Below are positions 15,886 through 61,716 of a stretch of DNA of 64,000 bases, one piece after another. Below the pieces are notes generated by a model that saw only the letters and a list, made by a program, of their open reading frames with translations, did not search any database and was not told where the DNA came from. The translations under genes and the position numbers were made by a program. Location: positions 8,829-72,828 of the forward strand of contig JAFTJE010000012.1 of NCBI GenBank assembly GCA_017456545.1, given 5' to 3'. Within the stretch, counting starts at the first letter, position 1. Each line of letters starts with the position of its first letter. The stretch is from Clostridia bacterium (GTDB lineage: Bacteria; Bacillota; Clostridia; Oscillospirales; CAG-272).

Positions 15886-16537
15886 TTTTTTCTCCTTCAG
15901 CGAATATGCGAATACCCGCCTTGATATCATTTATGCTATAACCGTAACGCATAAGAGAAGCCATCATTTTTCCCACATCCTCTTTTTCCTTGGGGAGGGG
16001 ATTGTACTTTTGTGAAATAATATAGGCACAGCTTGCCCCGAAGTCCACATCCTTAAGGGCAGATTTAAGAAATTCCATAACCTCGTCCCTCTTAAAGCCC
16101 TTAACTATAAACTCCTCGGCAATCTTCATCTGTCCGTACTTTTTGCGTAAACAGCTCTCAAGCAGAATACCCATCTGCTTCTTTTCATCTATATATCCTC
16201 TGTGCTCCATATAAAGAGCTACATTTTCACAAAGCTCCCTTGCATATCCTCTCTGCATTAGCTTATTTACAAGAGTTTTCTTATTATTATCTCCGTATGA
16301 AAGAATTGTAAAGGCGTGACGGCGTGCGTTATCAAAGAGCATCTCTTCTCTTATCTTAAGAAAATGCTCATCATCGATTATCTCGCCCTCATCAATATCA
16401 AATCTCTCGTACTGATCGTTTGAAAGAAGCATCTCAAACTTAGTACCCATAGAAGATGAAATGTGTAAGGTGTAGCCTTGCTGGGATTTCTTTATTTTTT
16501 CTACGGTGTAATAAATTTCATTTTTCATAATCATCAA
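15875..16537 (-). CDS. recX: Regulatory protein RecX
   Basis: Follows recA; LVNKL..RGY, GYIDE, KYG and LMRYGY repeats. Confidence 0.8.
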
Positions 16538-17631: not shown

Positions 17632-17729
17632 TTATTTTCTCCTTAGCTTTATTTTTTCTTCGGGAGATAAACCCCACTACGGTATATATTAATCAGTTGC
17701 AGTGGAGCTTTTACTCCTTTTTTAATTTT

Positions 17730-18302
17730 TCAGACAGTGGCAGAATCGAGTCTCCAGCCGTTGGACTCCTTACGGATTATTACCTCTACCTCTTCTCCCT
17801 CAGTGCTCATAACGGTGGCAATTATTCTTTTACTTCTGATGCTCTCTATTTTTATTGTGTCGTAATTATACTGTGTAATTTCTATAGCCTTATAATCCTT
17901 ATACACGGCAAGCAGTCCTGTGGAATCCTCTATATATCTGGATTTTGTAAGACCTCCCGTTCCACCGACGGAGGGATTAAGGTAATACTGTATCAGGGAA
18001 TTTGAATAAGACGCTGTAAATACCTCCTTTGTCCTTGCTGAAAGAATATCTACCGTCTTATACTTTTCGTTCAGGTCCACCTGTCTGTAAACCGACTGAT
18101 AAACCATACTGTCATTATACTTAAGACCCTTACCGTAGTAAATTTCATTAAGCTCACAGGAGGATTTTACAAGCTCCTCTACTATAACAATTGCCTCCTC
18201 CTCCTCGGGCCGTGTGGTAAATTCTATAATAAGCATTACAGCACCGACAATAAGGGCTATGGCTAATATAATAAATATAATCCTCTTCTTATTCTTAATC
18301 AT
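17730..18302 (-). CDS. Hypothetical membrane-anchored protein
   Basis: N-terminal TM helix; start overlaps the gyrA stop. Confidence 0.75.
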   Translation of the reverse strand: MIKNKKRIIFIILAIALIVGAVMLIIEFTTRPEEEEAIVIVEELVKSSCELNEIYYGKGLKYNDSMVYQSVYRQVDLNEKYKTVDILSARTKEVFTASYSNSLIQYYLNPSVGGTGGLTKSRYIEDSTGLLAVYKDYKAIEITQYNYDTIKIESIRSKRIIATVMSTEGEEVEVIIRKESNGWRLDSATV

Positions 18303-20872
18303 CAGTTATCCGATGCCTCTGCTTCCTTTACTGAATTTTCTTCATTTACAGACACAGTATCGGAGATTTTTTCTTCTCCCTCTGTGGCATCCACACTAAT
18401 TTCATTATTAATTTCAGAATTTTCCTCTTCCTTTTCGGAATCGGTAAAGGACATCTTAACTATCTTTGCATCCTTATTAAGCTTCATAACCTTGACGCCT
18501 GTTGCACTTCTGTTATATAAGGGAATTTCGGAAACGGAGGTTCTTATTACCACTCCCTCATTTGTAATGGCAATAATATCCTTTTCCTCATCCACAACTC
18601 CTATGGATGCAAGCTTTCCTGTCTTTTCATTAATATTATGGGCACGGACACCTAATATACCTCTGTTCCTTGACTCAAAGTCGGAGAAGCAGCTCCTCTT
18701 TCCAAAGCCATTTTCCGTTACTGTCAAGAGCTGCTTTTCATCATCAACTATTACAGCACCTATTACGGAATCCTCGTCACGGAGCTCAATACCTCTTACA
18801 CCTCTTGCAGTTCTTCCTACTATGCTTACCTTGTTTTCGGAGAATCTTGCTCCCTGTCCGTTTCTTGTAGCTATTATAATATCACTCTCTCCCTTGGTGT
18901 GACCTACAAATATAAGCTCATCACCCTCGTCAAGATTAATAGCTATCTTACCGCCCTTACGCTTATTCTCATATTCCTTAACCTCTGTACGCTTGATAAC
19001 ACCGTTTCTTGTAACCATTACAAGGTACTCGTTATCATTAAACTCAGTCAAGGAAATCATAGCTGTAACCCTTTCACCCTTTTCTATTTCTATAAGGTTA
19101 ATAAGGTTATTACCCTTGGCTGTTCTTGAGGATTCGGGAATCTCGTATACCTTCTTTATGAATATCTTACCTCTGTCTGTAAACATAAGCAGGTAGGAAT
19201 GGCTGTTTGCAACAAGGATATTTTCAATATTATCCTCTTCCTTTGTACCCATACCTATAATACCCTTACCACCACGCCTTTGTGCTGAGTAGGTATCTGT
19301 TGATACTCTCTTTATATATCCCGCATCTGTAAGAGTTACCACGCACTCGTGTCTGGGAATCAAATCCTCAAGGTCTATCTCATCCTCGGAATCCACAATC
19401 TCCGTTCTTCTTTCATCTGCGTATTTTCTCTTTATTTCAAGAAGCTCTGTCTTTATTATTTCCTTAACAAGACCCTCATCTGCAAGAATCTCGTTAAGCT
19501 CCTTTATTTTCGCATAAAGACTGTTTAATCTATCCTCTATCTTCTGTCTTTCAAGACCGGAGAGTCTGCCGAGAGTCATATCCACAATAGCCTGGGCCTG
19601 CTCATCGGTAAGCAAAAATCTCTCCTTAAGGTTTTCCTTAGCTGCCTGTGTGCTCTCGGATGCTCTGATAATTGAAATTATCACATCAATATTATCAATA
19701 GCAGTCTTGTAGCCCTCATAAATATGAGCCTCTGCCTTAGCCTTGGCTAAGTCAAATTTTGTTCTTCTTACTATTACTTCCTCTTGGAATTTTATATATT
19801 CTCCGAGAAGCTCACGGAGTCCGAGAGTCTTAGGCTCACCGTTTACAAGTGCAAGCATATTTACAGCACATGTATCCTGGAGCTGTGTGTTCTTATAAAG
19901 TGTATTGAGTATTACCTGAGGATTTGCATCCCTCTTATACTCAATTACTATTCTCATACCACGGCGTCCACTCTCATCACGGAGGTCAGATATTCCCTCA
20001 ATTCTCTTATCCTTAACCATATCCACTATGGATTTGATCATCTGGCTCTTATTAACCATATAAGGAATCTCGGTAATTACTATTCTTCTGTGCTCCTCCT
20101 CAATAGTCGCCTTGGAACGAACCATTACTCTGCCTTTACCTGTGGTATAGGCATCTATAATACCTCTTCTGCCGTAAATTGTGGCATAGGTAGGAAAGTC
20201 GGGGCCCTTTATATACTCCATCATTTCCTCAACGGTGGCATCGGGATTCTCCATTAAATGGATGGTACCGTCAATTACCTCACCTAAGTTGTGAGGAGGA
20301 ATATTGGTAGCCATACCTACGGCAATACCCACGCTTCCGTTTACCAGAAGGTTAGGAAATCTTGATGGGAGTATACTTGGCTCCTTTCTTGTATTGTCAA
20401 AGTTGGGTACAAGGTCCACTACATCCTTTTCAATATCGGACATAAGCTCATTGGCAAGCTTGGACATTCTCGCCTCTGTATAACGGTATGCGGCAGCACC
20501 GTCTCCGTCCACATTACCGAAGTTACCGTGTCCGTCAACCAATACATATCTCAGTGAGAAGGGCTGTGCCATTCTTACAAGTGTACCGTATACGGACTGG
20601 TCACCGTGGGGATGATATCTACCGAGAACATTACCTACTGTGGTAGCCGATTTTCTAAAGGGCTTGTCCGAGGTAAGATTATCCTCGTACATAGCGTACA
20701 GTACTCTACGCTGACCGGGCTTCATACCGTCTCTTACATCGGGAAGAGCTCGGCTTACTATAACACTCATGGAATATTCAAGGAAGGCTTCCTTTACCCT
20801 TGATTCCATTTGTCTGTTTACTATCATTTGCTCGGTATTTTCATAATCGAGCAATTCATCTCTGTCTCTCAT
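18302..20872 (-). CDS. gyrA: DNA gyrase subunit A
   Basis: RALPDVRDG, YHPHGD, AAYRYTE, GyrA box QRRGGKG. Confidence 0.98.
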   Translation of the reverse strand: MRDRDELLDYENTEQMIVNRQMESRVKEAFLEYSMSVIVSRALPDVRDGMKPGQRRVLYAMYEDNLTSDKPFRKSATTVGNVLGRYHPHGDQSVYGTLVRMAQPFSLRYVLVDGHGNFGNVDGDGAAAYRYTEARMSKLANELMSDIEKDVVDLVPNFDNTRKEPSILPSRFPNLLVNGSVGIAVGMATNIPPHNLGEVIDGTIHLMENPDATVEEMMEYIKGPDFPTYATIYGRRGIIDAYTTGKGRVMVRSKATIEEEHRRIVITEIPYMVNKSQMIKSIVDMVKDKRIEGISDLRDESGRRGMRIVIEYKRDANPQVILNTLYKNTQLQDTCAVNMLALVNGEPKTLGLRELLGEYIKFQEEVIVRRTKFDLAKAKAEAHIYEGYKTAIDNIDVIISIIRASESTQAAKENLKERFLLTDEQAQAIVDMTLGRLSGLERQKIEDRLNSLYAKIKELNEILADEGLVKEIIKTELLEIKRKYADERRTEIVDSEDEIDLEDLIPRHECVVTLTDAGYIKRVSTDTYSAQRRGGKGIIGMGTKEEDNIENILVANSHSYLLMFTDRGKIFIKKVYEIPESSRTAKGNNLINLIEIEKGERVTAMISLTEFNDNEYLVMVTRNGVIKRTEVKEYENKRKGGKIAINLDEGDELIFVGHTKGESDIIIATRNGQGARFSENKVSIVGRTARGVRGIELRDEDSVIGAVIVDDEKQLLTVTENGFGKRSCFSDFESRNRGILGVRAHNINEKTGKLASIGVVDEEKDIIAITNEGVVIRTSVSEIPLYNRSATGVKVMKLNKDAKIVKMSFTDSEKEEENSEINNEISVDATEGEEKISDTVSVNEENSVKEAEASDN

Positions 20873-20886
20873 ATATCCGAGCCTCC

Positions 20887-22833
<1,947 letters not shown>

Positions 22834-22887
22834 TCATAATGCTTAACACATAAATAAAGTGCAAAATTTTAATTTGATTTCTTTTAT

Positions 22888-23115
22888 CTATTTATAAATT
22901 GTTGATGAGTTAAAGGGGGATAGGTATACTGTTTCATCCCTCATTATTATAAAGGATTTGGGAAGCTCATAGCCTAAGGGAATTACTCTTTTTTCCTTTT
23001 CGGCTTCCTTGAGAAATTTTCTTGTATAAAGGGACACAGTAGATGAGTCAAGGTCAAATATAGCTACTATATCCTCTCTTCTCACAGACTTTGAGGGTCC
23101 TATGTGAAGGTACAT
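22888..23115 (-). CDS. remB: RemB/DUF370-family protein
   Basis: MYLHIG, IVAIFDLD, PKSFI; between recF and gyrB. Confidence 0.85.
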   Translation of the reverse strand: MYLHIGPSKSVRREDIVAIFDLDSSTVSLYTRKFLKEAEKEKRVIPLGYELPKSFIIMRDETVYLSPFNSSTIYK

Positions 23116-24215
23116 TATATTCTTCTTCCTTCCTTGATTCTTATCATATTTTCATTATAGCTGTCAAAAACAGAGGGCTCACAGGTGGTTATAATAACCT
23201 GCTTATTATCAATGCTTGATAAAATATATTGCTTTCTTCTCTCATCAAGCTCCGATAAAACATCGTCAAGCAGAAAAACAGGATATTCCCCCGTATATTC
23301 CCTGCTTATTTCTCCCTCTGCCATTTTCATAGCCAGTGCAAGGGACCTCTGCTGTCCCTGGGAGGCATAAAGTCGGGAATCTCTACCGTTTATATCTATT
23401 TTCAAATCATCCTTGTGTATACCGTAAAGGGTGGAGCCGTATTTAATCTCCCTTTCCCTGCTTGAACAGTAAAGAGAAAGATATTTTTCCCTTATCTCCT
23501 CCTTACTCCGACTGTCCTTGAGAGAATGGTTGGCATCGTAGGTAACGGTGGGTATTTCCTTACCGTCGGTCATATCCTTGAAAAATTCCTTTACCCAATA
23601 ATCGAGCCTTCTTATATATTCATCTCTTATAATGCTTATTTCTGCCGAAAGGGAGGATAGCTCCTCGGAATAAACATCCAAAAGCTGTTTTATATTGCTT
23701 TCCTCGGATTCCTCTCTTTTAAGTACGGCATTTCTGTTCATTATATAATTGTTATACTTGGCAAGGAGCCTTATATAATTCGGCTTAAGCTGGGATATAG
23801 CCACATCAAGAAAGCTTCTTCTTACAGAAGGGGAATCACTGATAATACCGAGATGGGACGGGCAGAATAATACAGCACGGAATTCTCCTATTATCTCAGA
23901 GGTCCTTGACACCCTTACATTATTTCTGTAAAAGGCTTTTGGCTTACTTTGGGATATTTCTACACCTAAGGTAACAGGACCCGAGGAATTTTCAAATTTA
24001 AGTAGGGAATAGGCAGATTGGGAGCCGAATTTTATAAGCTCCTTATCCTTTGAGGCACGAAAGCTTCTGCCCCTTGCAAAAATATAAATTCCTTCAAGAA
24101 TATTGGTTTTTCCCTGGGCATTGTCTCCGTAAATCACATTGACCCCGTCGGAAAACTCAATAGCTTCACTTTCTATATTGCGAAAGCTTATCAGCTCTGT
24201 GCTTTTTATTTTCAT
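23115..24215 (-). CDS. recF: DNA replication/repair protein RecF
   Basis: FRN, GDNAQGKTN, SQGQQR, LLDDVLSELD. Confidence 0.97.
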   Translation of the reverse strand: MKIKSTELISFRNIESEAIEFSDGVNVIYGDNAQGKTNILEGIYIFARGRSFRASKDKELIKFGSQSAYSLLKFENSSGPVTLGVEISQSKPKAFYRNNVRVSRTSEIIGEFRAVLFCPSHLGIISDSPSVRRSFLDVAISQLKPNYIRLLAKYNNYIMNRNAVLKREESEESNIKQLLDVYSEELSSLSAEISIIRDEYIRRLDYWVKEFFKDMTDGKEIPTVTYDANHSLKDSRSKEEIREKYLSLYCSSREREIKYGSTLYGIHKDDLKIDINGRDSRLYASQGQQRSLALAMKMAEGEISREYTGEYPVFLLDDVLSELDERRKQYILSSIDNKQVIITTCEPSVFDSYNENMIRIKEGRRI

Positions 24216-25360
24216 CAGCTATTCATTCTTATGGGCATTACAAAGTACTTGTAGGTGCCCTCCTCTTTATTTTGGGGCTCTATAAGAACTCCCGAAAAGG
24301 GATTGGAGTAGGACATCTTTATTTCACCGTCATCACATACTCTTATAGCCTCCAAAAGGAATTTACAGTTGAATGCAATTGTAATAGAGCCATCATTTTC
24401 CTTTCTTATATCCAATTCATCATAAACATTACCGTTAGCAGAATTGGTGGAAATGGAAAGAACCTCATCTATTGTAAACTTAACAAAGGAACGGATAGAG
24501 CCGTTTAATCTGTCCTCTACTATAAGGGAGGATCTTTCAAGGGCGTTTCTCAAATCCTCTGCCTTAAGGTAAGTAACTATCTTGTGCTCCTTAGGTAAAA
24601 GTCTTTCATAATTTATATAATCGGAATCTATGGTTTTTGAGAAGAGTGTAAATTCTCCTATTTTGAACACCATATATCTTCTTGTAACCTTGATTTCCAT
24701 GGTATCCTCGGAATCCTTTATCATCTTTATAGCATCCGATAAGGTTTTACCGGGAACTATAAATTTAAGGTTCAAGGAGGAGCCGTCTCTGTTTCTGCTT
24801 TCAAGAGCAACCCTTTTCTCACAGAAGGCAAGACGGTTGGAATCACAGGAAACGATAGTAACAGAATCCTCATCTATCTGGAAATAAGCTCCTGAGAAAA
24901 CAGGTCTTGAATCATTCTGGGCAATGGCAAAGGATATCTTATTAACAAGCTTCTTAAAGAGATACTGGGGTATTACAAAGCCTTTTTCACCCAAAACATC
25001 GGGAATGGAGGGAAAATCTCCACCGGGGAGAGCCTTGATATCAAAGTGGGAAAGACCGGACTCAATAACTGTTTTATAATTGGAGTCTACTGAAACCTTT
25101 ATTTCCCCGTCGGGAAGAGTTTTGATAATCTGCAAGAATTTCTGTGCTTCTATTACACAGTTGCCCTCCTCCAATACTTGGCACTCAAACTGTGTTTTAA
25201 TACCCTTTTCATTATCAAAGGTCTCAGCCTTACATATATTATCAGAGGTACAGTTTAAGTGGAAGCCCTCAAGGGCGGGAATTGCGGTTCTTGAGGATAC
25301 GGTATAAGTAAGAGGGGAAAGATAATTTAATATTGTCTGCTTGTCAAAAATTACGATCAT
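24215..25360 (-). CDS. dnaN: DNA polymerase III beta clamp
   Basis: SRPVFSG, DSNRLA, IVPGK, C-terminal VMPIR; position after dnaA. Confidence 0.95.
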   Translation of the reverse strand: MIVIFDKQTILNYLSPLTYTVSSRTAIPALEGFHLNCTSDNICKAETFDNEKGIKTQFECQVLEEGNCVIEAQKFLQIIKTLPDGEIKVSVDSNYKTVIESGLSHFDIKALPGGDFPSIPDVLGEKGFVIPQYLFKKLVNKISFAIAQNDSRPVFSGAYFQIDEDSVTIVSCDSNRLAFCEKRVALESRNRDGSSLNLKFIVPGKTLSDAIKMIKDSEDTMEIKVTRRYMVFKIGEFTLFSKTIDSDYINYERLLPKEHKIVTYLKAEDLRNALERSSLIVEDRLNGSIRSFVKFTIDEVLSISTNSANGNVYDELDIRKENDGSITIAFNCKFLLEAIRVCDDGEIKMSYSNPFSGVLIEPQNKEEGTYKYFVMPIRMNS

Positions 25361-25781
25361 AATATAATTCCTCCAAAATAAGGTTAAGGTCTATTAATTT
25401 GCCTTTGATTTGAAATTAATTTTCGGTGCTTTTCGAAAAATCTTTTTTTCTTGTTTTTTTTATTTAATAAATAATTAATATTGGCAGTAGCAGGAGTAAA
25501 AGTATTAGGGGTATGGGAAAGAGTTGAAAACTCCGAATTTCCTTACAAATCAAGGGAAAACCTTTTATTTTTATCAACTTTTTAAGGTTGTAAGGTGTGG
25601 AAAAGTATTGACCCTTTTCGACATAAAATTTCTCTTGTTTTCCACAAAATCCCGTTGGTTGATTAAAAGGGTGTGGAAAACTTTTTATTTTTATTTGTAA
25701 AAAACCGTAAAAAGCCTTGATTTATAAGGGTATTTGATAATTTTGAGTAAATGTGAGTTTTCCACAGTTATCAACACTCAG
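25361..25781. other. Probable oriC (dnaA-dnaN intergenic) with DnaA boxes, DnaA-trio-like tract and AT-rich unwinding region
   Basis: TTTTCCACA boxes at 25596, 25638, 25672, 25758 (either strand), TTATCAACA at 25768; on the minus strand degenerate boxes, CCCC, TAC-like trios (~25484-25507), then AT-rich DNA, as in B. subtilis incC. Confidence 0.85.
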
Positions 25782-27161
25782 TTAAATTCCCGAGGTTATG
25801 GTTCTTATAAGCTCACGAATTTCCATAGAGAGCTCTCCGTTGTGCTCCATTTCCTCCTTTATCACCTTTTCCGAGGATATTACAGTGGTTCTGTCTCTGT
25901 TAAGAGCCTTACCTATCTGTCCCTGGGATAGGGAGGTTATGGTCCTTGCTATGTATACACAGATGTGTCTTGCCATAGCTATTTCCATATTTCTCTTGGA
26001 GGAAAGTATATCCTCTCTTGAAATATCGTATTTCTTAGATACGGCAAGGATAATTTCATCCATTCTCTTCTCGTCATTTTCCTTGGTGCTGATAAAATCC
26101 TTGATAGCATTCTTTACTCTTTCTATATCCATCTCACCACCCTCAAGCAGAGAGATAGCACCCAGCTTTTTAATAACTCCCTCCAGCTGTCTTATGGAAG
26201 AGGTTACATTCTCGGCAAGATAATTAAGAGTCTCGGGACTGAGTGTAAGATTGCTCTGCTTAGCCTTCTGCTTAAGAATAGCTACACGGAGGTCAAAGTC
26301 GGGTAGGGAGATATCTGCCATAATTCCGGACATAAATCTTGACTGTAATCTTTCCTCCAGGGTCTTTATTTCCTTGGGAGGTCGGTCGGAGGTCAGAATT
26401 ATCTGCTTGTGCTCCTCGTGGATGGCATTAAAGGTATTGAAAAGCTCCTCCTGAGTAGATATTCTTCCGGCTACAAATTGAATATCGTCTATAAGAAGAA
26501 CATCTGCATTTCTGTACTTGTCCCTGAACTGTATGGTAGTTTTTTTCTGAATGGCATCTATGAGCTGATTTGTAAATTCCTCACCCTTTACATATATTAT
26601 TTTTTTGGTGGGGAAATTCTTTGATATACGGTTTGTAATGGCGTAGAGCAAATGAGTCTTTCCCACTCCCGAGGGACCGTATATAAAAAGAGGATTGTAA
26701 AGATTGTGTATATCCACCGTGTCATAGTCCTTATCGGCTACGGCAAGGGAGGCTGCATTGGCAAATTTATTGGATGAGCCGACCACAAAATTATCAAAGG
26801 TATATTCCAGCTTATAGTTATCGGGAACCGTAGCTGTCTTACCCTCGGTATCCTCTCCTCTCTTCATCTTTTTGAATATTTCTATATTTTCACGGGAGAG
26901 GTCTGCCTCACCGTTTTCACGGGAGGTAATGGATATATCCGGCTTGAAGCCCACTATCTGGAAAAGAGCTCCTGCCAGCTCCTCGGAAAACTGCTTTGCA
27001 ATAATATCTCTTTTAATATTTGTGGGAGTGGTAAATATTACCTCATCGGGAGTTAAGGATATCATTTTAAGGTCACTGAACCACAGCTTTACCACCGTGT
27101 CTGTATGATTGGATTTAAGTATTTGCAAAACATATTCCCATATATTTTCAAGATCTGTCAT
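25782..27161 (-). CDS. dnaA: Chromosomal replication initiator DnaA
   Basis: YTFDNFV, NPLFIYGPSGVGKTHL, LLIDDIQF, TSDRPP, RLQSRF; start placed at ATG 27161 from the RBS. Confidence 0.98.
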   Translation of the reverse strand: MTDLENIWEYVLQILKSNHTDTVVKLWFSDLKMISLTPDEVIFTTPTNIKRDIIAKQFSEELAGALFQIVGFKPDISITSRENGEADLSRENIEIFKKMKRGEDTEGKTATVPDNYKLEYTFDNFVVGSSNKFANAASLAVADKDYDTVDIHNLYNPLFIYGPSGVGKTHLLYAITNRISKNFPTKKIIYVKGEEFTNQLIDAIQKKTTIQFRDKYRNADVLLIDDIQFVAGRISTQEELFNTFNAIHEEHKQIILTSDRPPKEIKTLEERLQSRFMSGIMADISLPDFDLRVAILKQKAKQSNLTLSPETLNYLAENVTSSIRQLEGVIKKLGAISLLEGGEMDIERVKNAIKDFISTKENDEKRMDEIILAVSKKYDISREDILSSKRNMEIAMARHICVYIARTITSLSQGQIGKALNRDRTTVISSEKVIKEEMEHNGELSMEIRELIRTITSGI

Positions 27162-27471
27162 AATTTGTCCTTTCTTAAGAGCTGTAAAGGAAGAGCACTC
27201 CAAAAGATAATATTAACAGCTAAGCCCTTAAAGTTAGATTAAGAATATTATATTTATACATATATAATTATAATATATATCCAAAATATTGTCAAGGTGG
27301 AAAGGGAGATTTTTTCTAAAATAATAACCCGATTTTGGGACAATTTAAGCATATTTTTATTTGCACCTTGAAAATGAGGAAAAAAAAGTATATAATTATC
27401 ATACATAAAAAATCAGAGGGCAGATAAGATAATCTGCCCGATGAATAAAAATACAAGAAGGGAGAGAAGAT

Positions 27472-45718: not shown

Positions 45719-45740
45719 TTTTAATTAGTGAGGTGTGTAT

Positions 45741-46718
45741 ATGATTGAGATTACTGATAAAAAATTAAATGGATATAAATTCATAGATTTGTTTGCTGGT
45801 ATGGGTGGATTTAGAATAGCATTGGAATCACTTGGTGCCGAATGTGTTTATTCAAATGAATGGGATGTTCCTGTGCAAAAAGTATATGCTGATAATTTTG
45901 GGGATGTTCCAGAAGGTGATATAACAAAAATTGATGAATATTCTATTCCTTATCACGATATTCTTTGTGCTGGGTTTCCTTGTCAGGCATTCTCGATTAG
46001 TGGAAAGCAACGAGGGTTTGAAGATAGTAGGGGCACATTGTTTTTTGATGTAGCTAGAATTGTTAGGGCTAAAAAGCCTAAAATTGTATTTATGGAAAAT
46101 GTTAAAAATTTTGCCACGCATGACAACGGTAGAACCTTACAAATTGTAAAAAATATAATGGAAGAATTAGGATATGTTTTTTACCAAAAAATATTGAATT
46201 CGGTAGACTACGGTATACCGCAAAAACGAGAAAGAATTTATATGGTTTGCTTTAGAAAAGATTTACAAATAAACGACTTTGTATATCCAAAAAAAATCAA
46301 GCTTATACGACATGTTGAGGATTATTTATTACGAGATGAAGATCAGGTTAAACATTTGTATGTCAACAGATCAGATACGCAATTTAATAAAACAAAGGAT
46401 GATACTTACAGCAATAAGACAATTAGACTTGGAATAGTAAATAAAGGTGGACAAGGAGAGCGTATTTATAGCACAAAGGGAATAGCTATAACTCTTTCTG
46501 CTTGTGGAGGGGGAGTATTTGCTAGAACAGGTGGATATCTAATTAACGGAAAAACTCGTCGTTTGCATCCTAGGGAATGTGCAAGAATTATGGGTTATCC
46601 GGATTCCTATAGGCTAGCAAAAAATGCAAATCAAGCATACAAGCAACTTGGTAATTCTGTTGTAATTGATGTTTTACAGTATATTGCTTGTCAAATTGCA
46701 AATGTGGTGGAACGATGA
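45741..46718 (+). CDS. C5-cytosine DNA methyltransferase, M.HhaI-like (predicted GCGC)
   Basis: FAGMGG, GFPCQ, ENV, QKRER; TRD GIVNKGGQGERIYS..IAITLSA.GGG closely resembles M.HhaI as recalled. Confidence 0.92.
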   Translation: MIEITDKKLNGYKFIDLFAGMGGFRIALESLGAECVYSNEWDVPVQKVYADNFGDVPEGDITKIDEYSIPYHDILCAGFPCQAFSISGKQRGFEDSRGTLFFDVARIVRAKKPKIVFMENVKNFATHDNGRTLQIVKNIMEELGYVFYQKILNSVDYGIPQKRERIYMVCFRKDLQINDFVYPKKIKLIRHVEDYLLRDEDQVKHLYVNRSDTQFNKTKDDTYSNKTIRLGIVNKGGQGERIYSTKGIAITLSACGGGVFARTGGYLINGKTRRLHPRECARIMGYPDSYRLAKNANQAYKQLGNSVVIDVLQYIACQIANVVER

Positions 46719-47011
46719 ACGAAATAGATTTTAAGGCTTGGTTACGATCACAAAATACAATAAAAAAAGTTCAAGGCGATTTAATTTCAAGAATTAAACG
46801 CCTTGAACGTGTATTCGGTAATATTGACTTAGACGAAGAATATCAAAAAGATAAGTGCTGTTTTTTACTCTCTCTATTTAAAAACAAAGGAGTAAATTCC
46901 GAAATGAACAAATTTGAAATAGCGGAACTTCCAATAGGTCAATATCAATTAAGCACTTATAAGTATGCTTTGAAAAAGTACATATCATTTATCGAGTCAG
47001 AATGTCTATAA
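46715..47011 (+). CDS. Small hypothetical protein coupled to the methyltransferase
   Basis: ATGA overlap with the MTase stop codon. Confidence 0.65.
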   Translation: MNEIDFKAWLRSQNTIKKVQGDLISRIKRLERVFGNIDLDEEYQKDKCCFLLSLFKNKGVNSEMNKFEIAELPIGQYQLSTYKYALKKYISFIESECL

Positions 47012-47783
47012 ATCCAACATTTGAAATTGAATCTATTTGTGGTTCAAACTCCACAGAAAATATAACATTAGCATTAAGCGTATTTGAAAGTTTTCTAATT
47101 TCATATACGTTTTCTCTTTTTGAAAACATATATTCTGTTCCATCTAATTTAAACCTTATATTGTGAAGTTCGCTATTAGAAATAGCCATCATTCTATCGC
47201 CTTTTACACCAATGGCAATAATAGGATAATTGTTTTCAATATAATTTTTCATCTTTGCAACATTATTTTTTCCAACATATCCCGAACCACTTCTTTTAAC
47301 CCTATATGTAGCAGATATATTAAAAACATTTTCAATGTCTTCTATTGAAAAAATTTCAAAGTTATTCGTAATAATATATTTCGTTTCTTTTCTTTTGTAA
47401 TAATTTTTTATCCATGCTGCAAAAACATCAGTACCATTTTCCATTTCTATAAGTTTTCCCCTAGTTCCTGCATTTTTAAATGATTCAAAATCTTGATTCA
47501 TATATTCAATTATTGCGTGGGAGTATGGATTGATTGGTGTTGCGTTCAAATGACTATAATCAAACATTTCTATCCCTATATTAGGTAATAAAACAAACTG
47601 TCCACATTGAGCAGGGCAATGCTTCGCTTCAATGTAAAAAGATTTTCCACTATTAGTCACCACTTCAATGTCGGATTTTGTGGAATCGCTTTTTCCTTTC
47701 CAAGTAAAATGTGCATATTGACCGAAATGTCTTTCTAAATAGTCAACACAAGACTTTTCAAAATCTTCCCAAACTTTAGCCAT
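46989..47783 (-). CDS. Type II restriction endonuclease, R.HhaI-like
   Basis: SDSTKSDI..FYIEAK..QCGQFVL, YRVKRSGS, LSNTLNANVIFS resemble R.HhaI as recalled. Confidence 0.78.
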   Translation of the reverse strand: MAKVWEDFEKSCVDYLERHFGQYAHFTWKGKSDSTKSDIEVVTNSGKSFYIEAKHCPAQCGQFVLLPNIGIEMFDYSHLNATPINPYSHAIIEYMNQDFESFKNAGTRGKLIEMENGTDVFAAWIKNYYKRKETKYIITNNFEIFSIEDIENVFNISATYRVKRSGSGYVGKNNVAKMKNYIENNYPIIAIGVKGDRMMAISNSELHNIRFKLDGTEYMFSKRENVYEIRKLSNTLNANVIFSVEFEPQIDSISNVGFIDILTR

Positions 47784-48759
47784 TGTTATTGCCTCCTTGC
47801 TTTTTTATAAATTCAAGTATTGATGTACCTATTGCCTTAATTACATTTACAGTCATTGCATTTCCTGCTTGCATAAGCAAGTGCCTATCTTTAACAAAAT
47901 TTTTAACCCTCATAGCATATTCTTTTGGAAAACCTTGTAACAGCAAAGCTTCAAATCCGGTTAGTTGAAAAATAGTATTATTTTTAACATATAGAATACC
48001 ATCTCTTTGTGCTCGTAAAGTTGGGCATTTGCCGTCATATATTCTCAAATCGCTCATTCGAGTGTCTATGATTTTCCCTTCCATTTGAGTGATATCTGCA
48101 ACAGAATATTTGCCGTTGTTAGTTGGGTTATTCAAATAATAATGCAATATTTCGAGCCTTTCTGGAGTAGCTAAATTGTCATCAATTAAAAAATCCATTA
48201 AATTCGGTTTTATGATTTTTGGCGGCCATTCAAACTTAGAAAAATCAAAGTTCAAATCAGTTCTAAAACCAACAAAATAAACCCTTTGACGCATTTGTGG
48301 GACACCATAATCTAGGCTTGTCAAAACTCTGTACGATGTTGTATATCCACAATTTGTCAGTTCGTTTATAATCGTTTTGATTGTTTTCCCATTATCATGA
48401 GTTACCAATCCTTTTACATTTTCCAAGATAAAAACTTTTGGTGATTTCTCTTTTATAATTCTTGATAGATGGAATATGATTTGTCCCCTATCATCAGAGA
48501 AACCCTCTTGTCTACCGATAACAGAAAAAGTTTGGCAAGGGAATCCTGCAATCAAAACATCAAAATCAGGTAAATTTTCTTTTCCCAATTTTTTCAAATT
48601 TCCAAAATTTTTGTCCTCAGTTTGATGCATTAGTATATATGTTCTGTCGGCTAAACGACTCGTGTCGGAATGTCCTACACATCTTAGTCCACATTGTTCT
48701 AACCCTAGCCTTCCACCACCGATTCCTGAACAAAAATCAAAGAATGTATTAATCATCAT
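47776..48759 (-). CDS. Second C5-cytosine DNA methyltransferase (H. pylori GCGC-MTase-like)
   Basis: DFCSGIGGGRLGLEQC, GFPCQ, ENVKGL, DTRMSDLR..PTLR, QAGNAM. Confidence 0.88.
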   Translation of the reverse strand: MMINTFFDFCSGIGGGRLGLEQCGLRCVGHSDTSRLADRTYILMHQTEDKNFGNLKKLGKENLPDFDVLIAGFPCQTFSVIGRQEGFSDDRGQIIFHLSRIIKEKSPKVFILENVKGLVTHDNGKTIKTIINELTNCGYTTSYRVLTSLDYGVPQMRQRVYFVGFRTDLNFDFSKFEWPPKIIKPNLMDFLIDDNLATPERLEILHYYLNNPTNNGKYSVADITQMEGKIIDTRMSDLRIYDGKCPTLRAQRDGILYVKNNTIFQLTGFEALLLQGFPKEYAMRVKNFVKDRHLLMQAGNAMTVNVIKAIGTSILEFIKKQGGNNNG

Positions 48760-55375: not shown

Positions 55376-55517
55376 TCTTTAACTGAACATAAATTGATCG
55401 AGAGTGTCGCATGTCGGCACTCTCTTTTATATTAATTTTATGTAAATTTTTTAATAAATTTCAAATTATATATTGACAAGATAATAAAATAAGCGTATAA
55501 TAACCGTGATTATAAAT

Positions 55518-55756
55518 GGCGTTTGATGAAGAGAGTATTACAGGTCACTTATTCAAAGAGAGCCACGGTAGGTGAAAGCGTGGTAATAAGCCCTGCAAGA
55601 AAAACACTTCGTAGCCTGCGAAAGAAAGCCTTTTTGGTTAGTAGAATCGCACGCCCATCCCGTAAGGATGTTTAAGTGGACCGTTATCGGTCAATTTGGG
55701 TGGTACCGCGGAAGATAGCCTTTCGTCCCATATCGGGGGACGAAGGGCTTTTTGTT
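55518..55756 (+). promoter_or_regulatory. T-box riboswitch, probable Asn (AAC) specifier
   Basis: AGTA, AGAGAG and GGTGAAA stem-I motifs, GAA-A-AAC-A-CTTC specifier loop, GGGTGGTACCGCG T-box, terminator 55717-55756. Confidence 0.88.
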
Positions 55757-55824
55757 TTTCACAGATACAGCCTTCCCACATTACACAGGTTAAAAATATT
55801 TACTATAAATCGGAGGATAAAACC

Positions 55825-57600
55825 ATGTTAAGAACACATAATTGTAATGAGCTCGGACTTGCTCATATCGGTCAGAGTGTAACTCTTACCGGTTGGATTG
55901 AAACCGTCCGTGACCACGGTGGAGTGCTTTTTGTAGACCTTCGTGACCACTACGGCGTAACACAGATCGTATTTTCCGACGACTCTATGATAGCGGGTAT
56001 GTCAAAGGAAACCGTTGTTAAGGTTGACGGAACAGTAACAAAGCGTGATGAGGACACAGTAAACCCCAAGATTGCAACAGGACTTATTGAGGTTCGTGCA
56101 GAGAGCATAGAGGTTCTCGGCCCCTGTCAGCTCGGTCTCCCCTTTGAAATTGACGCATCCACACAGACAAGAGAGGATGTACGCCTTAAGTACCGTTATC
56201 TCGACCTTCGTAACCGTAAGATTCACGATAATATCGTGCTCCGTTCTAAAATCTTGAGCTATCTCCGCCGTCAGATGGAGGACTTGGGCTTTATGGAGAT
56301 ACAGACTCCTATTCTTACAGCCTCCTCACCCGAGGGTGCAAGAGACTATCTCGTGCCCAGCCGTAAGCATAAGGGTAAATTCTATGCACTTCCTCAGGCT
56401 CCCCAGCAGTTCAAGCAGCTGCTTATGGCATCAGGCTTTGACCGTTATTTCCAGATTGCTCCCTGCTTCCGTGATGAGGATGCCCGTCAGGACCGTTCTC
56501 CCGGAGAGTTCTATCAGCTTGACTTTGAGATGTCCTTTGCAACGCAGGAGGATGTATTCGAGGTTGCTGAGACAGTAGTTTACAACACCTTTAAGGAGTT
56601 CTCCAAAAAGGAGGTTTCCAAGCCCCCCTTCCGTAGAATTACCTTTGCAGACGCAATGATGAAGTACGGCTCCGATAAGCCTGACCTTCGCAATCCCCTC
56701 ATTATTCAGGACCTTACAGACTTCTTCGGTAAGCACGAGTTCCTTACAATCAACGGAAGAACAGTACCCTTCAAGAACAAGCTTGTCCGTGGTATTGTAG
56801 CCAACTATCTTGTTAAGAAGGATGGTGACGGAGACGGTAAGAAGGCATTTGAAAAGGCTATTGACGCTTATTCAAGAAGCATAGGTATGAAGTTCGGTAT
56901 CGGCTACATCACACTCGAGGGTGGAGAATACAAGGGTCCTATTGCCAAGTTCCTTACAGAGGAGCAGAAGGCAGAGCTTACAGCTCTTGTAGGTATTAAG
57001 GAGGGCGAGTCCCTGTTCTTCATCAGTGACTCTGCTTCCGTTATCAATAAGCTCTCCGGTGAGATGAGAACATGGATAGGCAATGAGCTCGGTCTTATCA
57101 AGAACGACTCCTTTGAGTTCTGCTTCATTGTTGATTTCCCCATGTATGAGCTTAATCCCGAAACAAATAAGATTGACTTTACACATAACCCCTTCTCAAT
57201 GCCCCAGGGAGGTATGGATGCACTTCTTAATAAGGATCCTCTTGATATTTTTGCATACCAGTATGATATTGTATGTAACGGTGTAGAGCTTTCCTCCGGT
57301 GCTGTTCGTAACCATAATCCCGATATTATGAGAAAGGCATTTGAGATTGCAGGCTACGGTGAGGATACACTCAAGGCTAAGTTCGGTGCCCTTTACACAG
57401 CCTTTGCATACGGTGCTCCTCCTCATGCAGGTATGGCTCCCGGCGTTGACAGAATGATTATGCTTATCGCCGAGGAGGAAACAATCCGTGATGTTATCGC
57501 ATTCCCCTTGAACGGTAACGCACAGGATCTTATGATGGGTGCCCCCGGTGAGGTAACAGAGCAGCAGCTCCGTGAGGTACACATTAAGGTAAGAGACTGA
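55825..57600 (+). CDS. aspS: Aspartyl-tRNA synthetase, probably non-discriminating
   Basis: RTH, RDHGG, EGARDY, PQQFKQ, CFRDED, GAPPHAG; GGAGG RBS before ATG 55825. Confidence 0.95.
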   Translation: MLRTHNCNELGLAHIGQSVTLTGWIETVRDHGGVLFVDLRDHYGVTQIVFSDDSMIAGMSKETVVKVDGTVTKRDEDTVNPKIATGLIEVRAESIEVLGPCQLGLPFEIDASTQTREDVRLKYRYLDLRNRKIHDNIVLRSKILSYLRRQMEDLGFMEIQTPILTASSPEGARDYLVPSRKHKGKFYALPQAPQQFKQLLMASGFDRYFQIAPCFRDEDARQDRSPGEFYQLDFEMSFATQEDVFEVAETVVYNTFKEFSKKEVSKPPFRRITFADAMMKYGSDKPDLRNPLIIQDLTDFFGKHEFLTINGRTVPFKNKLVRGIVANYLVKKDGDGDGKKAFEKAIDAYSRSIGMKFGIGYITLEGGEYKGPIAKFLTEEQKAELTALVGIKEGESLFFISDSASVINKLSGEMRTWIGNELGLIKNDSFEFCFIVDFPMYELNPETNKIDFTHNPFSMPQGGMDALLNKDPLDIFAYQYDIVCNGVELSSGAVRNHNPDIMRKAFEIAGYGEDTLKAKFGALYTAFAYGAPPHAGMAPGVDRMIMLIAEEETIRDVIAFPLNGNAQDLMMGAPGEVTEQQLREVHIKVRD

Positions 57601-57647: not shown

Positions 57648-57929
57648 ATGGATAAAGATACATTGAGAAGGCTGGAGCTGTTAAATCAGCTCAGCCTTAC
57701 AGAAGAGCAGAAGAGTGAAATGTATTCATTCTTCGACAGAAGAGATAAAGACCTTTCCGAGCTTTCCTCTATTGATACTGAAAATACTGAGAGAATGGTA
57801 CATGTTTTACCTATACTTACAGTAGTTCGTGAGGATAAGATAATACAGAATTTTGACCGTGAGTCACTCCAGGCAGGAGCACCCGAGACCGACGAGGGAT
57901 ACTGGTGTGTTCCCCGTGTGGTAGAGTAA
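57648..57929 (+). CDS. gatC: Amidotransferase subunit C
   Basis: VVRED, AP...YWCVPRVV; position in operon. Confidence 0.85.
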   Translation: MDKDTLRRLELLNQLSLTEEQKSEMYSFFDRRDKDLSELSSIDTENTERMVHVLPILTVVREDKIIQNFDRESLQAGAPETDEGYWCVPRVVE

Positions 57930-57941
57930 TGGGAGGTAAGT

Positions 57942-59144
57942 ATGGAATTCTATTTTGAAAAAGTAAATACATCCCTTGACAAAAAAATTGTAGCAGATGA
58001 TATGCTTCTTACAAAGGACATACCCACAACAGCAGGCTCAAGGATGCTTGACGGATATGTTAGCCTTTTTGAGGCAGAGGTGCTTACCCGTCTTACAAAT
58101 GCAGGATATGGCCTTTGTGGTAAGGCATCTGTCGGTGAGTTTGCAATTGACCTCCTCGGCGAGACCTCATATAAGGGTGCTTGCGTAGATGAAAACGGTA
58201 AAATCCTTAACCCCGTGGCTGAAATTATCAAGTCCGGAGATGCTATGGCAGGTATCTGCCTTGATGCAAACGGTTATGTAAGAAGAGCCTCTGCACAGTA
58301 CGGTCTTGTAAGCGTTAAGCCTACCTACGGCACAGTTTCCCGTTTCGGTATGATTCCTGTAGCTTGCTCAGGCGATTGTGTAAGCGTAATGGCAGAGAGC
58401 ACAACAGTATGCCGTGATATTCTCGATGCTATATCAGGCCACGACGACAAGGATGGCACAAGCCTGCCAGAAGGCAAGTGTGCACTTCTTAAAAAGTCTG
58501 CTCCTGTGGTTGAATTTAAGCGTATTGCCGTAATTACAGATATGCTTTGCTCCGACGATACCGTAAACGGTGCTGTAAACAGCCTTGCAGCTAAGCTTGA
58601 GGCTGACGGAATCGTAGTGGACCGTATTGAAAACGACCTTATAAAGAAGTCCCGTAATGCGTGGAATATCCTTATGAGTGCAGAGCTTTGCAACAATGTT
58701 TCCCGTTATGATGGCGTAAAATACGGCTACCGTTCCAATAATTTTACATCCATTGATGAGCTTTATACCAACAGCCGTACAGAGGCATTCGGCGATTTTC
58801 TTAAAGCTGCTATTCTTTTCGGCTCCGATACACTCTCTACAGAAAACTATATGAGGGTATATGATAAGGCTCTTCGAGTACGCAGACTTATCTGCGAGGA
58901 GTTCGGTAAGCTCTTTAAGGAGTATGATGCAGTTCTTATGCCTGCTTGCTCCACTATGGCTTACGGTATTGAGGATGTAAAAGCAAATAAGGATATGCCC
59001 TATACAGAAAACCTTTATACTGCTCCTGCAAGCATTACAGGTCTTCCTGCTGTTGTTTTTGAGGGAGTACAGCTTATTTGCAACTATTTTAATGAGACAT
59101 CCCTTCTTGCACTTTGCGAGAAATTGGAAAAGGAGGGTAAATAA
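57942..59144 (+). CDS. gatA: Amidotransferase subunit A homolog with degenerate catalytic triad
   Basis: TTAGS, KPTYGTVSRFG, SRYDGVKYGYR, SRTEAFG retained; amidase signature altered. Confidence 0.85.
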   Translation: MEFYFEKVNTSLDKKIVADDMLLTKDIPTTAGSRMLDGYVSLFEAEVLTRLTNAGYGLCGKASVGEFAIDLLGETSYKGACVDENGKILNPVAEIIKSGDAMAGICLDANGYVRRASAQYGLVSVKPTYGTVSRFGMIPVACSGDCVSVMAESTTVCRDILDAISGHDDKDGTSLPEGKCALLKKSAPVVEFKRIAVITDMLCSDDTVNGAVNSLAAKLEADGIVVDRIENDLIKKSRNAWNILMSAELCNNVSRYDGVKYGYRSNNFTSIDELYTNSRTEAFGDFLKAAILFGSDTLSTENYMRVYDKALRVRRLICEEFGKLFKEYDAVLMPACSTMAYGIEDVKANKDMPYTENLYTAPASITGLPAVVFEGVQLICNYFNETSLLALCEKLEKEGK

Positions 59145-60587
59145 ATGAGATACGAAACAGTCATCGGTCTTGAGGTTCACTGTGAGCTTGCAACCGACTC
59201 AAAGATTTTCTGCTCCTGCTCAGCTCATTCCTACGGTGCTGAGCCCAATACCCATGTTTGTCCCGCATGCTGTGGTATGCCCGGTATGCTTCCTATTGTT
59301 AATAAAAGAGTAGTGGACTACGGTATGAAGGCAGGTCTTATGCTTAACTGTCACATTAACCGTGTGACAACCTTTGATAAAAAGAGCTACTACTATCCCG
59401 ACCTTCCCTCAGCTTATCAGACTACACAGTGGTTTGCCCCCGTTGCCGTAAACGGTCTTGTGGAGATTGAAACCTCCCAGGGCAAAAAGGGTGTACGCAT
59501 TAAGCAGATTCATATGGAGGAGGACGCAGGTAAGCTCGTTCACGATATCCGTGAGGATACTACACATGTTGACTTTAACCGTACAAGTGTTCCCCTTATT
59601 GAAATTGTAAGCCAGCCGGACCTTTCCTCTGCTGAGGAGGTTGAGGCTTATCTTGAAAGACTTAAAGTCCTTCTTCGCTATGCAAGGGTTGCCGAGTGTG
59701 AGATGGCACACGGTACAATGCGTTGTGATGTAAACCTTTCTGTTCGTCCCGAGGGTAGCGATAAGCTCGGTGTCCGTACCGAAATGAAGAATATGAACTC
59801 TATCGAGGCTATCAAGCGTGCAATAGAGTATGAAACAGCAAGACACATTGACGCTATCGAAAACGGAACAGAGGTGCTTGTACAGGAGACACGCCGTTGG
59901 GACGATATCAAGGGCAAGAGCTATGCTATGAGATCCAAGGAAACAGCAGGTGATTACCGTTATTTCCCCGACCCCAATGTAATGCCTGTTGTAATTGATG
60001 ATGAATGGTTTGACTCCATTCAGGCTTCATTACCCGAATTTCCCGAGGTTAAGCGTGAGAAGTATATGACAGAGCTCGGTCTTAGCGACTATGACGCTGA
60101 GCAGATTGCAAAGAGCATTGCACTTTGTGAGTGCTTTGAGGATGCATACTCTGTATGCGGTAATGCAAAGGATGCTGCTAACTGGATGTTATCCGAGGTT
60201 ATGAGCAATCTTAACGCCCGTCAGATGACCTACGATATGCTTACCCTTAACGGCAAGGCACTGGGTGAGCTTATCTCCCTTGTTTCCGGAAATAAGGTGG
60301 GCCGTGCCAATGCCAAGAAGATACTCAATGCTATGTTTGATGACGCAGCCGTTGTTCCCTCCAAGTACGCAGAGGAGAACGGATTTATAATCTCCAACGA
60401 TACAGGACTTATGGATAAGGTTATAAAGACCATGGTAGAGGCTGACCCTAAGGCTGTGGCCGACTATAAGGGTGGTAAGGAAAAGGCTATTATGGCAATC
60501 TACGGTAAGTGTATGAAGGAGCTTCGTGGTAACTGTGACCCCCAGATGCTTCGCACAAAGCTTATAGAATATATAAACAGCCTTTAA
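59145..60587 (+). CDS. gatB: Amidotransferase subunit B
   Basis: IGLEVHCEL, YYPDLP, HMEEDAGK, RCDVN, DYRYFPDP. Confidence 0.96.
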   Translation: MRYETVIGLEVHCELATDSKIFCSCSAHSYGAEPNTHVCPACCGMPGMLPIVNKRVVDYGMKAGLMLNCHINRVTTFDKKSYYYPDLPSAYQTTQWFAPVAVNGLVEIETSQGKKGVRIKQIHMEEDAGKLVHDIREDTTHVDFNRTSVPLIEIVSQPDLSSAEEVEAYLERLKVLLRYARVAECEMAHGTMRCDVNLSVRPEGSDKLGVRTEMKNMNSIEAIKRAIEYETARHIDAIENGTEVLVQETRRWDDIKGKSYAMRSKETAGDYRYFPDPNVMPVVIDDEWFDSIQASLPEFPEVKREKYMTELGLSDYDAEQIAKSIALCECFEDAYSVCGNAKDAANWMLSEVMSNLNARQMTYDMLTLNGKALGELISLVSGNKVGRANAKKILNAMFDDAAVVPSKYAEENGFIISNDTGLMDKVIKTMVEADPKAVADYKGGKEKAIMAIYGKCMKELRGNCDPQMLRTKLIEYINSL

Positions 60588-60720: not shown

Positions 60721-60860
60721 TAATTCTGCACTCTGCACTCTGAATTCTGCATTCTGTATTGATTAGTTGTTTGTTGTCGTACCGATATCCTGCATTTACA
60801 TTTAATCAATCAATTCTGCACTCTGCACTCTGAATTCTGCATTCACATAGATTCTGCATT
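60721..60860 (-). repeat. Heptamer composite repeat, homolog of 13557-13838
   Basis: Reverse complement reads AATGCAGAATCTATGTGAATGCAG...AATTGATTGATT...CGACAACA; a shorter tract lies at 60588-60620 on the plus strand. Confidence 0.85.
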
Positions 60861-61594
60861 CAATCAAGCTTCGGTTCAAAAACCGGCATAAGCTCCAGCT
60901 TAAAGAGATTCATTCTATGCTTTCTGTCAATAAGTGCCTTCTTTTCGGGGTCATCAATTTCCCCTGTACGGATATATCTGTCAAGCTCAGCATAGGTAAA
61001 GCCCAGGTTGTCCTCATCCGTCTTACCGCAAAGACCGTCAATAGGAGTCTTATCAACAAGCTCACGGGGGAGACCGAGTGCATGACCGATAGCCTTTACC
61101 TCCTGGACCGTAAGACGGGAGAGAGGGCTGAAGTCACCAACGGAGTCACCGTATCTTGTGGAGTAGCCTACCCAGTCCTCGGAGAGATTACAGGTATTTG
61201 CAACTCTTCCGTTACAGCTCTGGGACACTGCATAAACAGTAGTCATACGGATACGGGGCATAATATTACTTGTGGACTGGAAGGAGAGAGGAAGGTCGGA
61301 GGGCATACTGCCTATAAGACCGTCAACTGCATCCTTTATATTAACAACATAATGCTTTATGCCAAGATGGTTTACAAGAGCATAGGCACAGTCGATATCG
61401 TGCTGCTCACCGTTAGGCATAAGAACTCCGATAACTCTGTCCTTACCGAGGGCTTCAACGCAAAGAGCTGCAACAACAGAGCTGTCCTTTCCACCTGAAA
61501 TGCCGAGGACGGCATTACAGCCCTTACCGTTATTTTCAAAAAATTCTCTTATCCAATTTACACAGTCATTTTTGACCTTTTCAGCATTAAACAT
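60860..61594 (-). CDS. nadE: NH3-dependent NAD+ synthetase (single domain)
   Basis: LGISGGKDSS, RIRM, GYSTRYGD, DEDNLGFTY; no glutaminase domain. Confidence 0.92.
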   Translation of the reverse strand: MFNAEKVKNDCVNWIREFFENNGKGCNAVLGISGGKDSSVVAALCVEALGKDRVIGVLMPNGEQHDIDCAYALVNHLGIKHYVVNIKDAVDGLIGSMPSDLPLSFQSTSNIMPRIRMTTVYAVSQSCNGRVANTCNLSEDWVGYSTRYGDSVGDFSPLSRLTVQEVKAIGHALGLPRELVDKTPIDGLCGKTDEDNLGFTYAELDRYIRTGEIDDPEKKALIDRKHRMNLFKLELMPVFEPKLD

Positions 61595-61716
61595 GGTACT
61601 CACCTCATATATATTTATATTTCAATTATATACTACCTTCACTGTGTTGTCAACCCTTGATTTCGGAGTGGAAATGTTGTATACTGTATGTAATAAGGAA
61701 CACAAAGGAGGGCATA

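Follow-up and report, generated by a model that had tools for sequence, protein, structure and literature searches.

If the GatA subunit of a GatCAB amidotransferase cannot hydrolyze glutamine, from where does the enzyme take the nitrogen that turns Asp-tRNA(Asn) into Asn-tRNA(Asn)? The question is raised by one gene (57942..59144, + strand) in a stretch of 64,000 nucleotides, called the window below, from Clostridia bacterium (CAG-272; assembly GCA_017456545.1, contig JAFTJE010000012.1, positions 8,829 to 72,828, forward strand). GatCAB is the textbook glutamine-dependent enzyme of tRNA amidation, and its ammonia tunnel and the coupling of its glutaminase to its kinase are a model for amidotransferases. 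A first-pass annotation of the window had proposed that this GatA, here designated GatA', is a pseudo-enzyme and that Asn-tRNA is made from free ammonia with GatA' as a scaffold. The analysis assigns a probability of about 0.55 to the reading that a noncatalytic GatA', encoded in a module with a T-box leader specific for tRNA-Asn, takes part in the amidation of Asp-tRNA(Asn) with free NH3/NH4+.

Organization of the operon and its surroundings

The operon opens with a T-box leader that has an Asn (AAC) specifier (55513..55733; Rfam RF00230), followed, all on the + strand, by aspS2 (55822..57600; NF001750), gatC (57648..57929; TIGR00135 at 60.8 bits against a cut-off of 47.1, and PF02686), gatA' and gatB (59145..60587; NF004012 at 579.6 bits against a cut-off of 338, with PF02934 and PF02637). 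The aspS2 gene encodes a bacterial-type AspRS (AspRS2) that is presumed to be non-discriminating; its open reading frame opens at a TTG codon at 55696, but the likely start is 55822 because the NF001750 match (765.5 bits, cut-off 443) begins at residue 43 of that frame. GatB and GatC both score above the cut-offs of their equivalog models and GatB matches the T. maritima GatB (3al0_B) with 435 bits, so that both appear canonical, as the first-pass annotation had said of the GatB motifs. The gatA' gene, identified by profiles, alignment and fold as encoding a GatA homologue that is truncated at its N-terminus and has no catalytic triad, is an intact frame of 400 aa with an ATG start and a GGGAGG Shine-Dalgarno sequence 6 nt before it. 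Only four in-frame sense codons lie 5' of this ATG and gatC ends at 57929, which leaves no room for the ~60 N-terminal residues of other GatA proteins; these are therefore truly absent. The ATG of gatB abuts the stop codon of gatA', and the Shine-Dalgarno sequence of gatB is within the 3' end of gatA'.

Some variation in the arrangement was observed among related loci. In some carriers of the operon, aspS and gatC form one fused open reading frame (L013 of genome G018 and G234:C10:75950-77668, 709 and 733 aa), and AspRS frames of 697-702 aa are also found at two loci with a canonical GatA (L019 and L020). One related locus has a glycine riboswitch immediately 3' of gatB (L032:6818-6916).

The chromosomal replication origin probably lies within the window: dnaA (25785-27203), dnaN, recF, gyrB, gyrA and recA occupy 16537-27203 on the - strand, parA/parB/noc-like genes lie at 34.7-38.1 kb, and the cumulative GC skew has its minimum at ~22-26 kb of the window. 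Two DNA cytosine-5 methyltransferase genes on opposite strands (45735-48759; TIGR00675, 299 and 264 bits) lie where the GC content of the window is lowest (31-38%), in what is probably a restriction-modification island.

Loss of the glutaminase active site

The strings from which the loss of catalytic function had been proposed (IVADDML at residues 15-21 and CLDANGYVR at residues 106-114, with SRYDGVKYGYR as a retained structural motif) are all present in the intact 400-aa frame. A phmmer search of PDB sequences aligns residues 19-371 of GatA' with residues 79-439 of S. aureus GatA (2df4_A; E 1e-50), in which Ser178 is the nucleophile of the Ser-cisSer-Lys triad (PMC2330236). With the S. aureus residues counted by hand on this alignment, the catalytic K79 pairs with D19 of GatA', the GGSSGG segment that bears the cis-Ser S154 is deleted, and the nucleophile S178 pairs with Y112, which bears out the proposed loss of the triad. 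The Arg and Asp residues that bind glutamine, reported as R334 and D418 in the yeast enzyme and as conserved in bacteria (PMC4027206), are R358 and D425 in S. aureus by alignment count and A290 and N357 in GatA'; thus the loss reaches past the triad to substrate binding. The gene occupies the place of a gatA, between gatC and gatB, and the protein scores 168.1 bits against PF01425, the amidase signature (gathering threshold 27), of which the Gly/Ser-rich GGSSGGS signature is absent from GatA', deleted according to both the alignment and a motif comparison. Against the equivalog model TIGR00132, GatA' stays well below the cut-off (243.3 versus 481.1 bits; 242.1 bits in a search within the genome) and matches only profile positions 62-463.

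The same losses are found in relatives of GatA'. A listing of homologous proteins has at least 120 clusters of ~400 aa at 60-95% identity; where the clusters listed have a name, it is "hypothetical protein". A scan of species-representative genomes yielded 349 stretches that encode a relative, of which the best 80 were compared together with the window (81 loci). In these 81 loci (the window and the best 80 of 349) the Lys column contains D in 77 and E in four, the GG[ST][ST]GG motif does not occur in any, and the nucleophile column varies freely (S in 43, A in 14, T in 13, Y in 10 and M in one). A motif table of seven operons of this type and nine canonical gatA genes, all from one bacterial family, gives the same division: the nine canonical proteins have KD, GGS[ST]GS, GGS, SS[LFM][DE] and RRI/ERL/QRI, whereas the seven short proteins have [DEG][DG], no loop, a variable segment, CSG[ED] (ASGE in one) and K-x-[AVI]. 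The glutamine-binding Arg of the VKRRI motif is kept in all nine canonical relatives and the Asp at the D425 position in seven of them; the seven short forms have A, S, T or V at the Arg position and N or S at the Asp position. Because triad, Gly/Ser loop and glutamine-binding Arg and Asp residues are all gone, GatA' is not an amidase-signature glutaminase, and gatA' is predicted from its sequence to encode a noncatalytic GatA, unable to hydrolyze glutamine or asparagine.

Selection on gatA' and remodelling of the former active site

Neutral decay, with gatA' as a pseudogene, was considered as an explanation of these losses and rejected: the gene is intact in the 81 loci (the window and the best 80 of 349), and its dN/dS is 0.07-0.14. 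By the Nei-Gojobori method with the 95% identical locus L030 as reference, dN/dS is 0.113 for gatA', 0.043 for gatB, 0.031 for aspS and 0.19 for gatC; in 20 pairs whose GatA' proteins are more than 80% identical, the values span 0.074-0.144 (gatA') and 0.012-0.121 (gatB). The comparison among relatives thus agrees with the first-pass annotation, for which neutral decay would have been fatal. Averaged over 1424 pairs, identity is 85% (AspRS2), 80% (GatB), 64% (GatC) and 62% (GatA'), from which it follows that GatA', evolving about twice as fast as GatB, is under constraint, though a looser one than that on its partners; at least 95% conservation is found at 117 of its 400 positions in the 81 loci. 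Two stop codons were seen in other copies of the short GatA: that of genome G268 has an in-frame TAG, and the match in G058 was flagged with one TGA, yet an open frame of 406 codons was found there.

An AF2 model of GatA' (pLDDT 96.1, pTM 0.93) has as its top Foldseek matches the GatA chains 3h0l_A and 2df4_A (TMq 0.90-0.91, rmsd 2.5 A), with 4wj3_A in the same TMq range and other amidases at 0.82 or less. In the model, therefore, the amidase-signature fold is kept and is closest to that of solved GatA proteins.

Within this fold the former active site has been altered in a consistent way. When 66 GatA representatives that bear the triad were compared with the 81 loci (the window and the best 80 of 349), 49 of the canonical conserved positions were unchanged, 11 (the nucleophile included) were no longer conserved, and 12 had switched to a different residue conserved in at least 85% of the 81 loci. 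The switches include K to D19, G to D70, T to V109, G to N110, D to E145, Y to W241, S to N251 and D to N357. Conservation of at least 95% is new at another 24 positions, E356 among them, and C142 and C250, each at least 95% conserved in the 81 loci, replace a canonical Ser in the motif table. By homology to canonical active-site positions, the switched residues are predicted to line one pocket. The switched and newly conserved residues suggest that what was the active site is now a remodelled, acid-rich region on which selection acts, and not one that has merely eroded; since pocket residues have switched to new, strongly conserved ones instead of drifting, to call GatA' a pure scaffold may understate its part. 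Conservation of the pocket appears to exceed the needs of a passive scaffold and would leave room for a ligand or new chemistry. Changes in GatB were sought with nine canonical GatBs of one bacterial family: 102 conserved positions are common to both groups, and 16 are group-specific, that is, at least 95% conserved in the GatBs of the operon and different from a residue common to at least eight of the nine canonical proteins (among them K79 for R, Q121 for R, T147-S148 for C-G, Q157 for E and N278 for D).

The operon as a probable route to Asn-tRNA(Asn)

The leader of aspS2 matches RF00230 over the full model (1-219) with 113.7 bits (gathering threshold 93), and its specifier loop, GAA-A-AAC-A, is invariant in the 13 leaders that were aligned. 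An nhmmer profile finds the T-box in 56 of the 57 related loci with at least 350 nt 5' of aspS, and Rfam alone finds it in 12 of 15 loci scanned; 51 of the 56 leaders have the strict GAA[AG]AACA pattern and the other five have AAC in a slightly different context. The order aspS-gatC-gatA'-gatB is complete in 65 of the 81 loci (the window and the best 80 of 349). The other 16, many of which stop at contig ends, are partial (11 with gatC-gatA-gatB, two with aspS-gatC-gatA, two with a split aspS hit and one with gatA-gatB), and the 81 loci show no conserved gene beyond these four.

The host genome (G000; 1.9 Mb in 43 contigs, 90.55% complete) was searched for the alternative routes that the first-pass annotation had named. 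A profile search found no second gatA or other amidase, so that gatA' is the only amidase-signature gene of this assembly; neither asnS (best class-II matches at most 110 bits) nor asnA was found in it. A Gln-type asnB is present, together with a glutamine synthetase, but without an AsnRS, AsnB is no source of Asn-tRNA. GlnRS is present (683 bits). Besides AspRS2 there is a second, housekeeping AspRS (C15:36382-38205, locus L004), 38.5% identical to AspRS2. Among the 32 tRNAs of the host assembly, no tRNA-Asn or tRNA-Asp gene was found.

The distribution of the short GatA was followed through a family sample of 101 genomes and an order sample of 201 genomes; all carriers are MAGs, 85-98% complete. 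In the family sample, 35 genomes have any gatA match and 17 have one above the cut-off, and seven (G000, G017, G018, G037, G081, G098 and G058) carry the short form, with 219-272 bits and a match that starts at profile position 39-62. The asnS gene is found in 91 of the 101 genomes, and the ten without it are the seven carriers and G029, G062 and G071; thus 91 of 94 non-carriers have asnS and three do not. Six further carriers (G102, G234, G276, G188, G115 and G268) come from four further families in the order sample, and asnS at E<=1e-40 was found in none of the 13 carriers, which are 85-98% complete MAGs. Divergent partial matches in G231 and G220 (with asnS) and G193 (without asnS) were left out of the carrier count. 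The short form is the only gatA in 11 of the 13 carriers; G058 and G102 also hold a canonical one. In G058, which has no asnS, a canonical gatA-gatB pair (613.6 bits) was observed together with a full aspS-gatC-gatA'-gatB operon (loci L017 and L018), which may be an intermediate state or a division of labour.

Given the AAC specifier of the T-box, the lack of asnS in all 13 carriers and the short form as sole gatA in 11 of them, the module is taken to be a route to Asn-tRNA(Asn), and very probably the only one. The evidence from leader and gene content supports an aspS2-gatC-gatA'-gatB operon dedicated to Asn-tRNA(Asn); with GlnRS in the genome and asnS found in none of the carriers, the assignment of the operon to Asn-tRNA made in the first-pass annotation stands, and we infer that AspRS2 is non-discriminating. 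Two AspRS genes are present in all 12 carriers checked, whereas G031 and G002, non-carriers of the same genera as carriers, have asnS, no gatA and the housekeeping AspRS only; the AspRS2 of G000 is 79-82% identical to those of G017 and G098, compared to 58-60% for the housekeeping AspRS. The pattern is thus that of a self-contained cassette alternating with asnS, and horizontal spread of this cassette is likely.

Source of nitrogen for the amidation

In the proposed mechanism, uncharged tRNA-Asn would switch on the module through the T-box, AspRS2 would load Asp onto tRNA-Asn, and GatB would phosphorylate and then amidate that Asp while being held, most likely, by GatA' and GatC in a GatC-A'-B complex. 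The nitrogen would be free NH3/NH4+ of the cytoplasm, entering probably by way of the remodelled, acid-rich former active site of GatA' (opened by loss of the N-terminal cover and the Gly/Ser loop) and passing through the GatA-GatB tunnel. The formation of the complex, ammonia as donor and the route of entry are what we infer from several lines of background. GatC folds GatA and bridges GatA to GatB (PMC2330236; PMC4027206). The retention of gatC in the operon, and the direct contact between the stop codon of gatA' and the start of gatB, give indirect support to a putative complex. Yeast GatFAB is reported to transamidate with 20 mM NH4Cl, and a truncation of GatF that destabilizes the GatA site is reported to lower glutaminase activity and raise NH4Cl-driven transamidation (PMC4027206). 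The GatCAB tunnel is described as hydrophilic, with ammonium thought to pass by protonation and deprotonation (PMC2330236), which an open acidic vestibule would fit. By analogy, free NH3/NH4+ would be the best candidate donor; it is also the simplest source, since GatA' is predicted to make no ammonia and the module has no other gene, and direct uptake of ammonia by the enzyme is probable because a dead GatA is kept under selection in Clostridia that have no other apparent route for charging tRNA-Asn.

A more tentative proposal, possible but doubtful at present, is that the old pocket, with its conserved D19, D20, D70, D108, E145, E356, N110 and W241, has become a dedicated site of ammonium capture that feeds the GatA-GatB tunnel; the enzyme would then be the first natural ammonia-specific tRNA-dependent amidotransferase, carried on a mobile T-box cassette that displaces AsnRS in gut Clostridia. 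The carriers are gut organisms: of 80 record titles, 22 give a site in the ruminant hindgut and one gives horse faeces, and the DNA runs that contain the operon come under the labels of gut or sheep metagenomes; no RNA run was listed for it. Such habitats are generally ammonia-rich. A search of the host genome (90.55% complete) for an Amt ammonium transporter gave no match. Glutamine does not appear scarce by gene content, as glutamine synthetase and the Gln-type AsnB persist. The first-pass annotation had also argued for an ammonia-rich niche from the single-domain nadE next to the operon (60860-61603, - strand, convergent with and downstream of gatB; profile match) and from ddh (10823-11803, - strand; TIGR01921, 435.8 bits). 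Both genes are real, but ddh is 47 kb from the operon and nadE adjoins it in only three of the 81 loci (the window and the best 80 of 349), so that nadE is not considered part of the system and its adjacency was rejected as a functional link; the argument from the niche is weak.

Alternative explanations

Three other readings of the locus can be weighed against amidation with free ammonia. GatA' might be an amide hydrolase with a new catalytic set in the old pocket, either with Cys142 or Cys250 as nucleophile or with a cluster of Asp and Glu residues and a metal, and might free NH3 from an amide, be it Gln, Asn or some other. The dN/dS of ~0.1, the 12 canonically invariant positions that have switched, the 24 that are newly conserved and the two conserved Cys residues in place of Ser would all fit such an enzyme; its nucleophile position, however, varies freely, its Gly/Ser loop is deleted and its glutamine-binding Arg and Asp are gone, and no enzyme of the amidase-signature family is known to us to function once the triad is lost, all of which makes a new catalytic set unlikely. 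Less likely again is that the ammonia is delivered by another protein, a glutaminase or amidotransferase subunit with its gene elsewhere, which would dock on GatA' or GatB. Split glutaminase/synthase pairs are common in other amidotransferases, and such a subunit could bind to the conserved, remodelled surface, but the 65 complete loci consist of four genes only, and the host genome offers as candidates only two matches to the class-I glutamine amidotransferase domain (PF00117) and the single amidase-signature gene. Replacement of asnS by the cassette within genera (G000 versus G031, G098 versus G002) likewise favours a self-contained unit.

Least probable, and very unlikely, is that an AsnRS has gone undetected through gaps in the MAGs or through divergence, the module not being the route to Asn-tRNA and GatA'-GatB having another or a vestigial role. 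Every carrier is an incomplete MAG, and the host assembly lacks tRNA-Asn as well; yet chance gaps in genomes that are 85-98% complete would have to remove asnS from all 13 carriers while 91 of the 94 non-carriers of the family sample retain it, the T-box senses tRNA-Asn, and a vestigial role agrees poorly with mean identities across carriers of 80% for GatB and 85% for AspRS2. Amidation of Asp-tRNA(Asn) with free NH3/NH4+ in the presence of a noncatalytic GatA' is the reading preferred here.

If this reading is true, a tRNA-dependent pathway is able to run on environmental ammonia, with a bearing on the nitrogen economy of ammonia-rich guts, and the cassette offers a natural system for the roles of GatA besides hydrolysis, namely as scaffold, as tunnel and in allostery. 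A further gain would be a corrected annotation of short GatAs, which are now labelled "hypothetical" or "amidase family", with the consequence that metabolic reconstructions of gut and rumen Oscillospirales would wrongly give them no route to Asn-tRNA. The carriers would form a large natural clade in which GatA is kept and its chemistry erased, in an enzyme that looks essential for decoding Asn.

Comparison with known systems

An exhaustive search of representatives finds many GatA-like proteins without the triad at 29-56% identity, some of them full length (e.g., P0148, 474 aa). A quick maximum likelihood tree of 140 rows, built from the top 150 matches of a triad-less query (a biased sample) and rooted only at the midpoint, places all 70 canonical, nine mixed and 13 sporadic dead sequences in one clade of 92 rows (SH-aLRT 100%); the other 48 dead rows fall outside it, including a clade of 18 rows that contains the GatA' of the window, and the tree forces at least six changes of state. 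No published description of a triad-less GatA was found in a full-text literature search. With the canonical GatCAB enzymes of S. aureus (2DF4/2F2A), A. aeolicus (3H0L) and T. maritima (3AL0), the system has in common its subunits, gene order and GatA fold, but GatA' is shorter by ~60 residues at its N-terminus and has lost Lys79, Ser178, the loop that holds Ser154 and the glutamine-binding Arg and Asp residues. The T-box(Asn) aspS-gatCAB operon of C. acetobutylicum (Saad et al. 2012, J Biol Chem, as cited in PMC4206432) likewise has a T-box leader, an extra AspRS and a GatCAB, with Asn made on the tRNA; set beside it, the cassette differs in its triad-less GatA' and in that AsnRS was not found in the carriers.

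Yeast mitochondrial GatFAB is, like the complex proposed here, a heterotrimer, and it is reported to run on NH4Cl (PMC4027206), but the deletions from the N-terminus of GatF described there were made in the laboratory, in an enzyme that depends on glutamine, whereas the loss in GatA' has come about in nature, is complete and is conserved. AtzE-AtzG (PDB 6C62/6C6G) likewise branched off from GatA and has a GatC-like partner; it is called a "vestigial" complex, derives from GatCA and is by its PDB title an enzyme of s-triazine catabolism. Its chains rank 13 and 16 among the Foldseek matches of GatA' (TMq 0.77-0.78). AtzE-AtzG presumably has a still active amidase and has lost GatB, whereas the GatA' system has lost the amidase chemistry and kept GatB. 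A further parallel is the NadE family, whose ATP-dependent amidation is described both for NH3-dependent single-domain versions and for versions fused to a glutaminase (PMC3376133). Single-domain NadE dispenses with the glutaminase domain outright, whereas the GatA' module keeps its glutaminase subunit in a dead and remodelled form.
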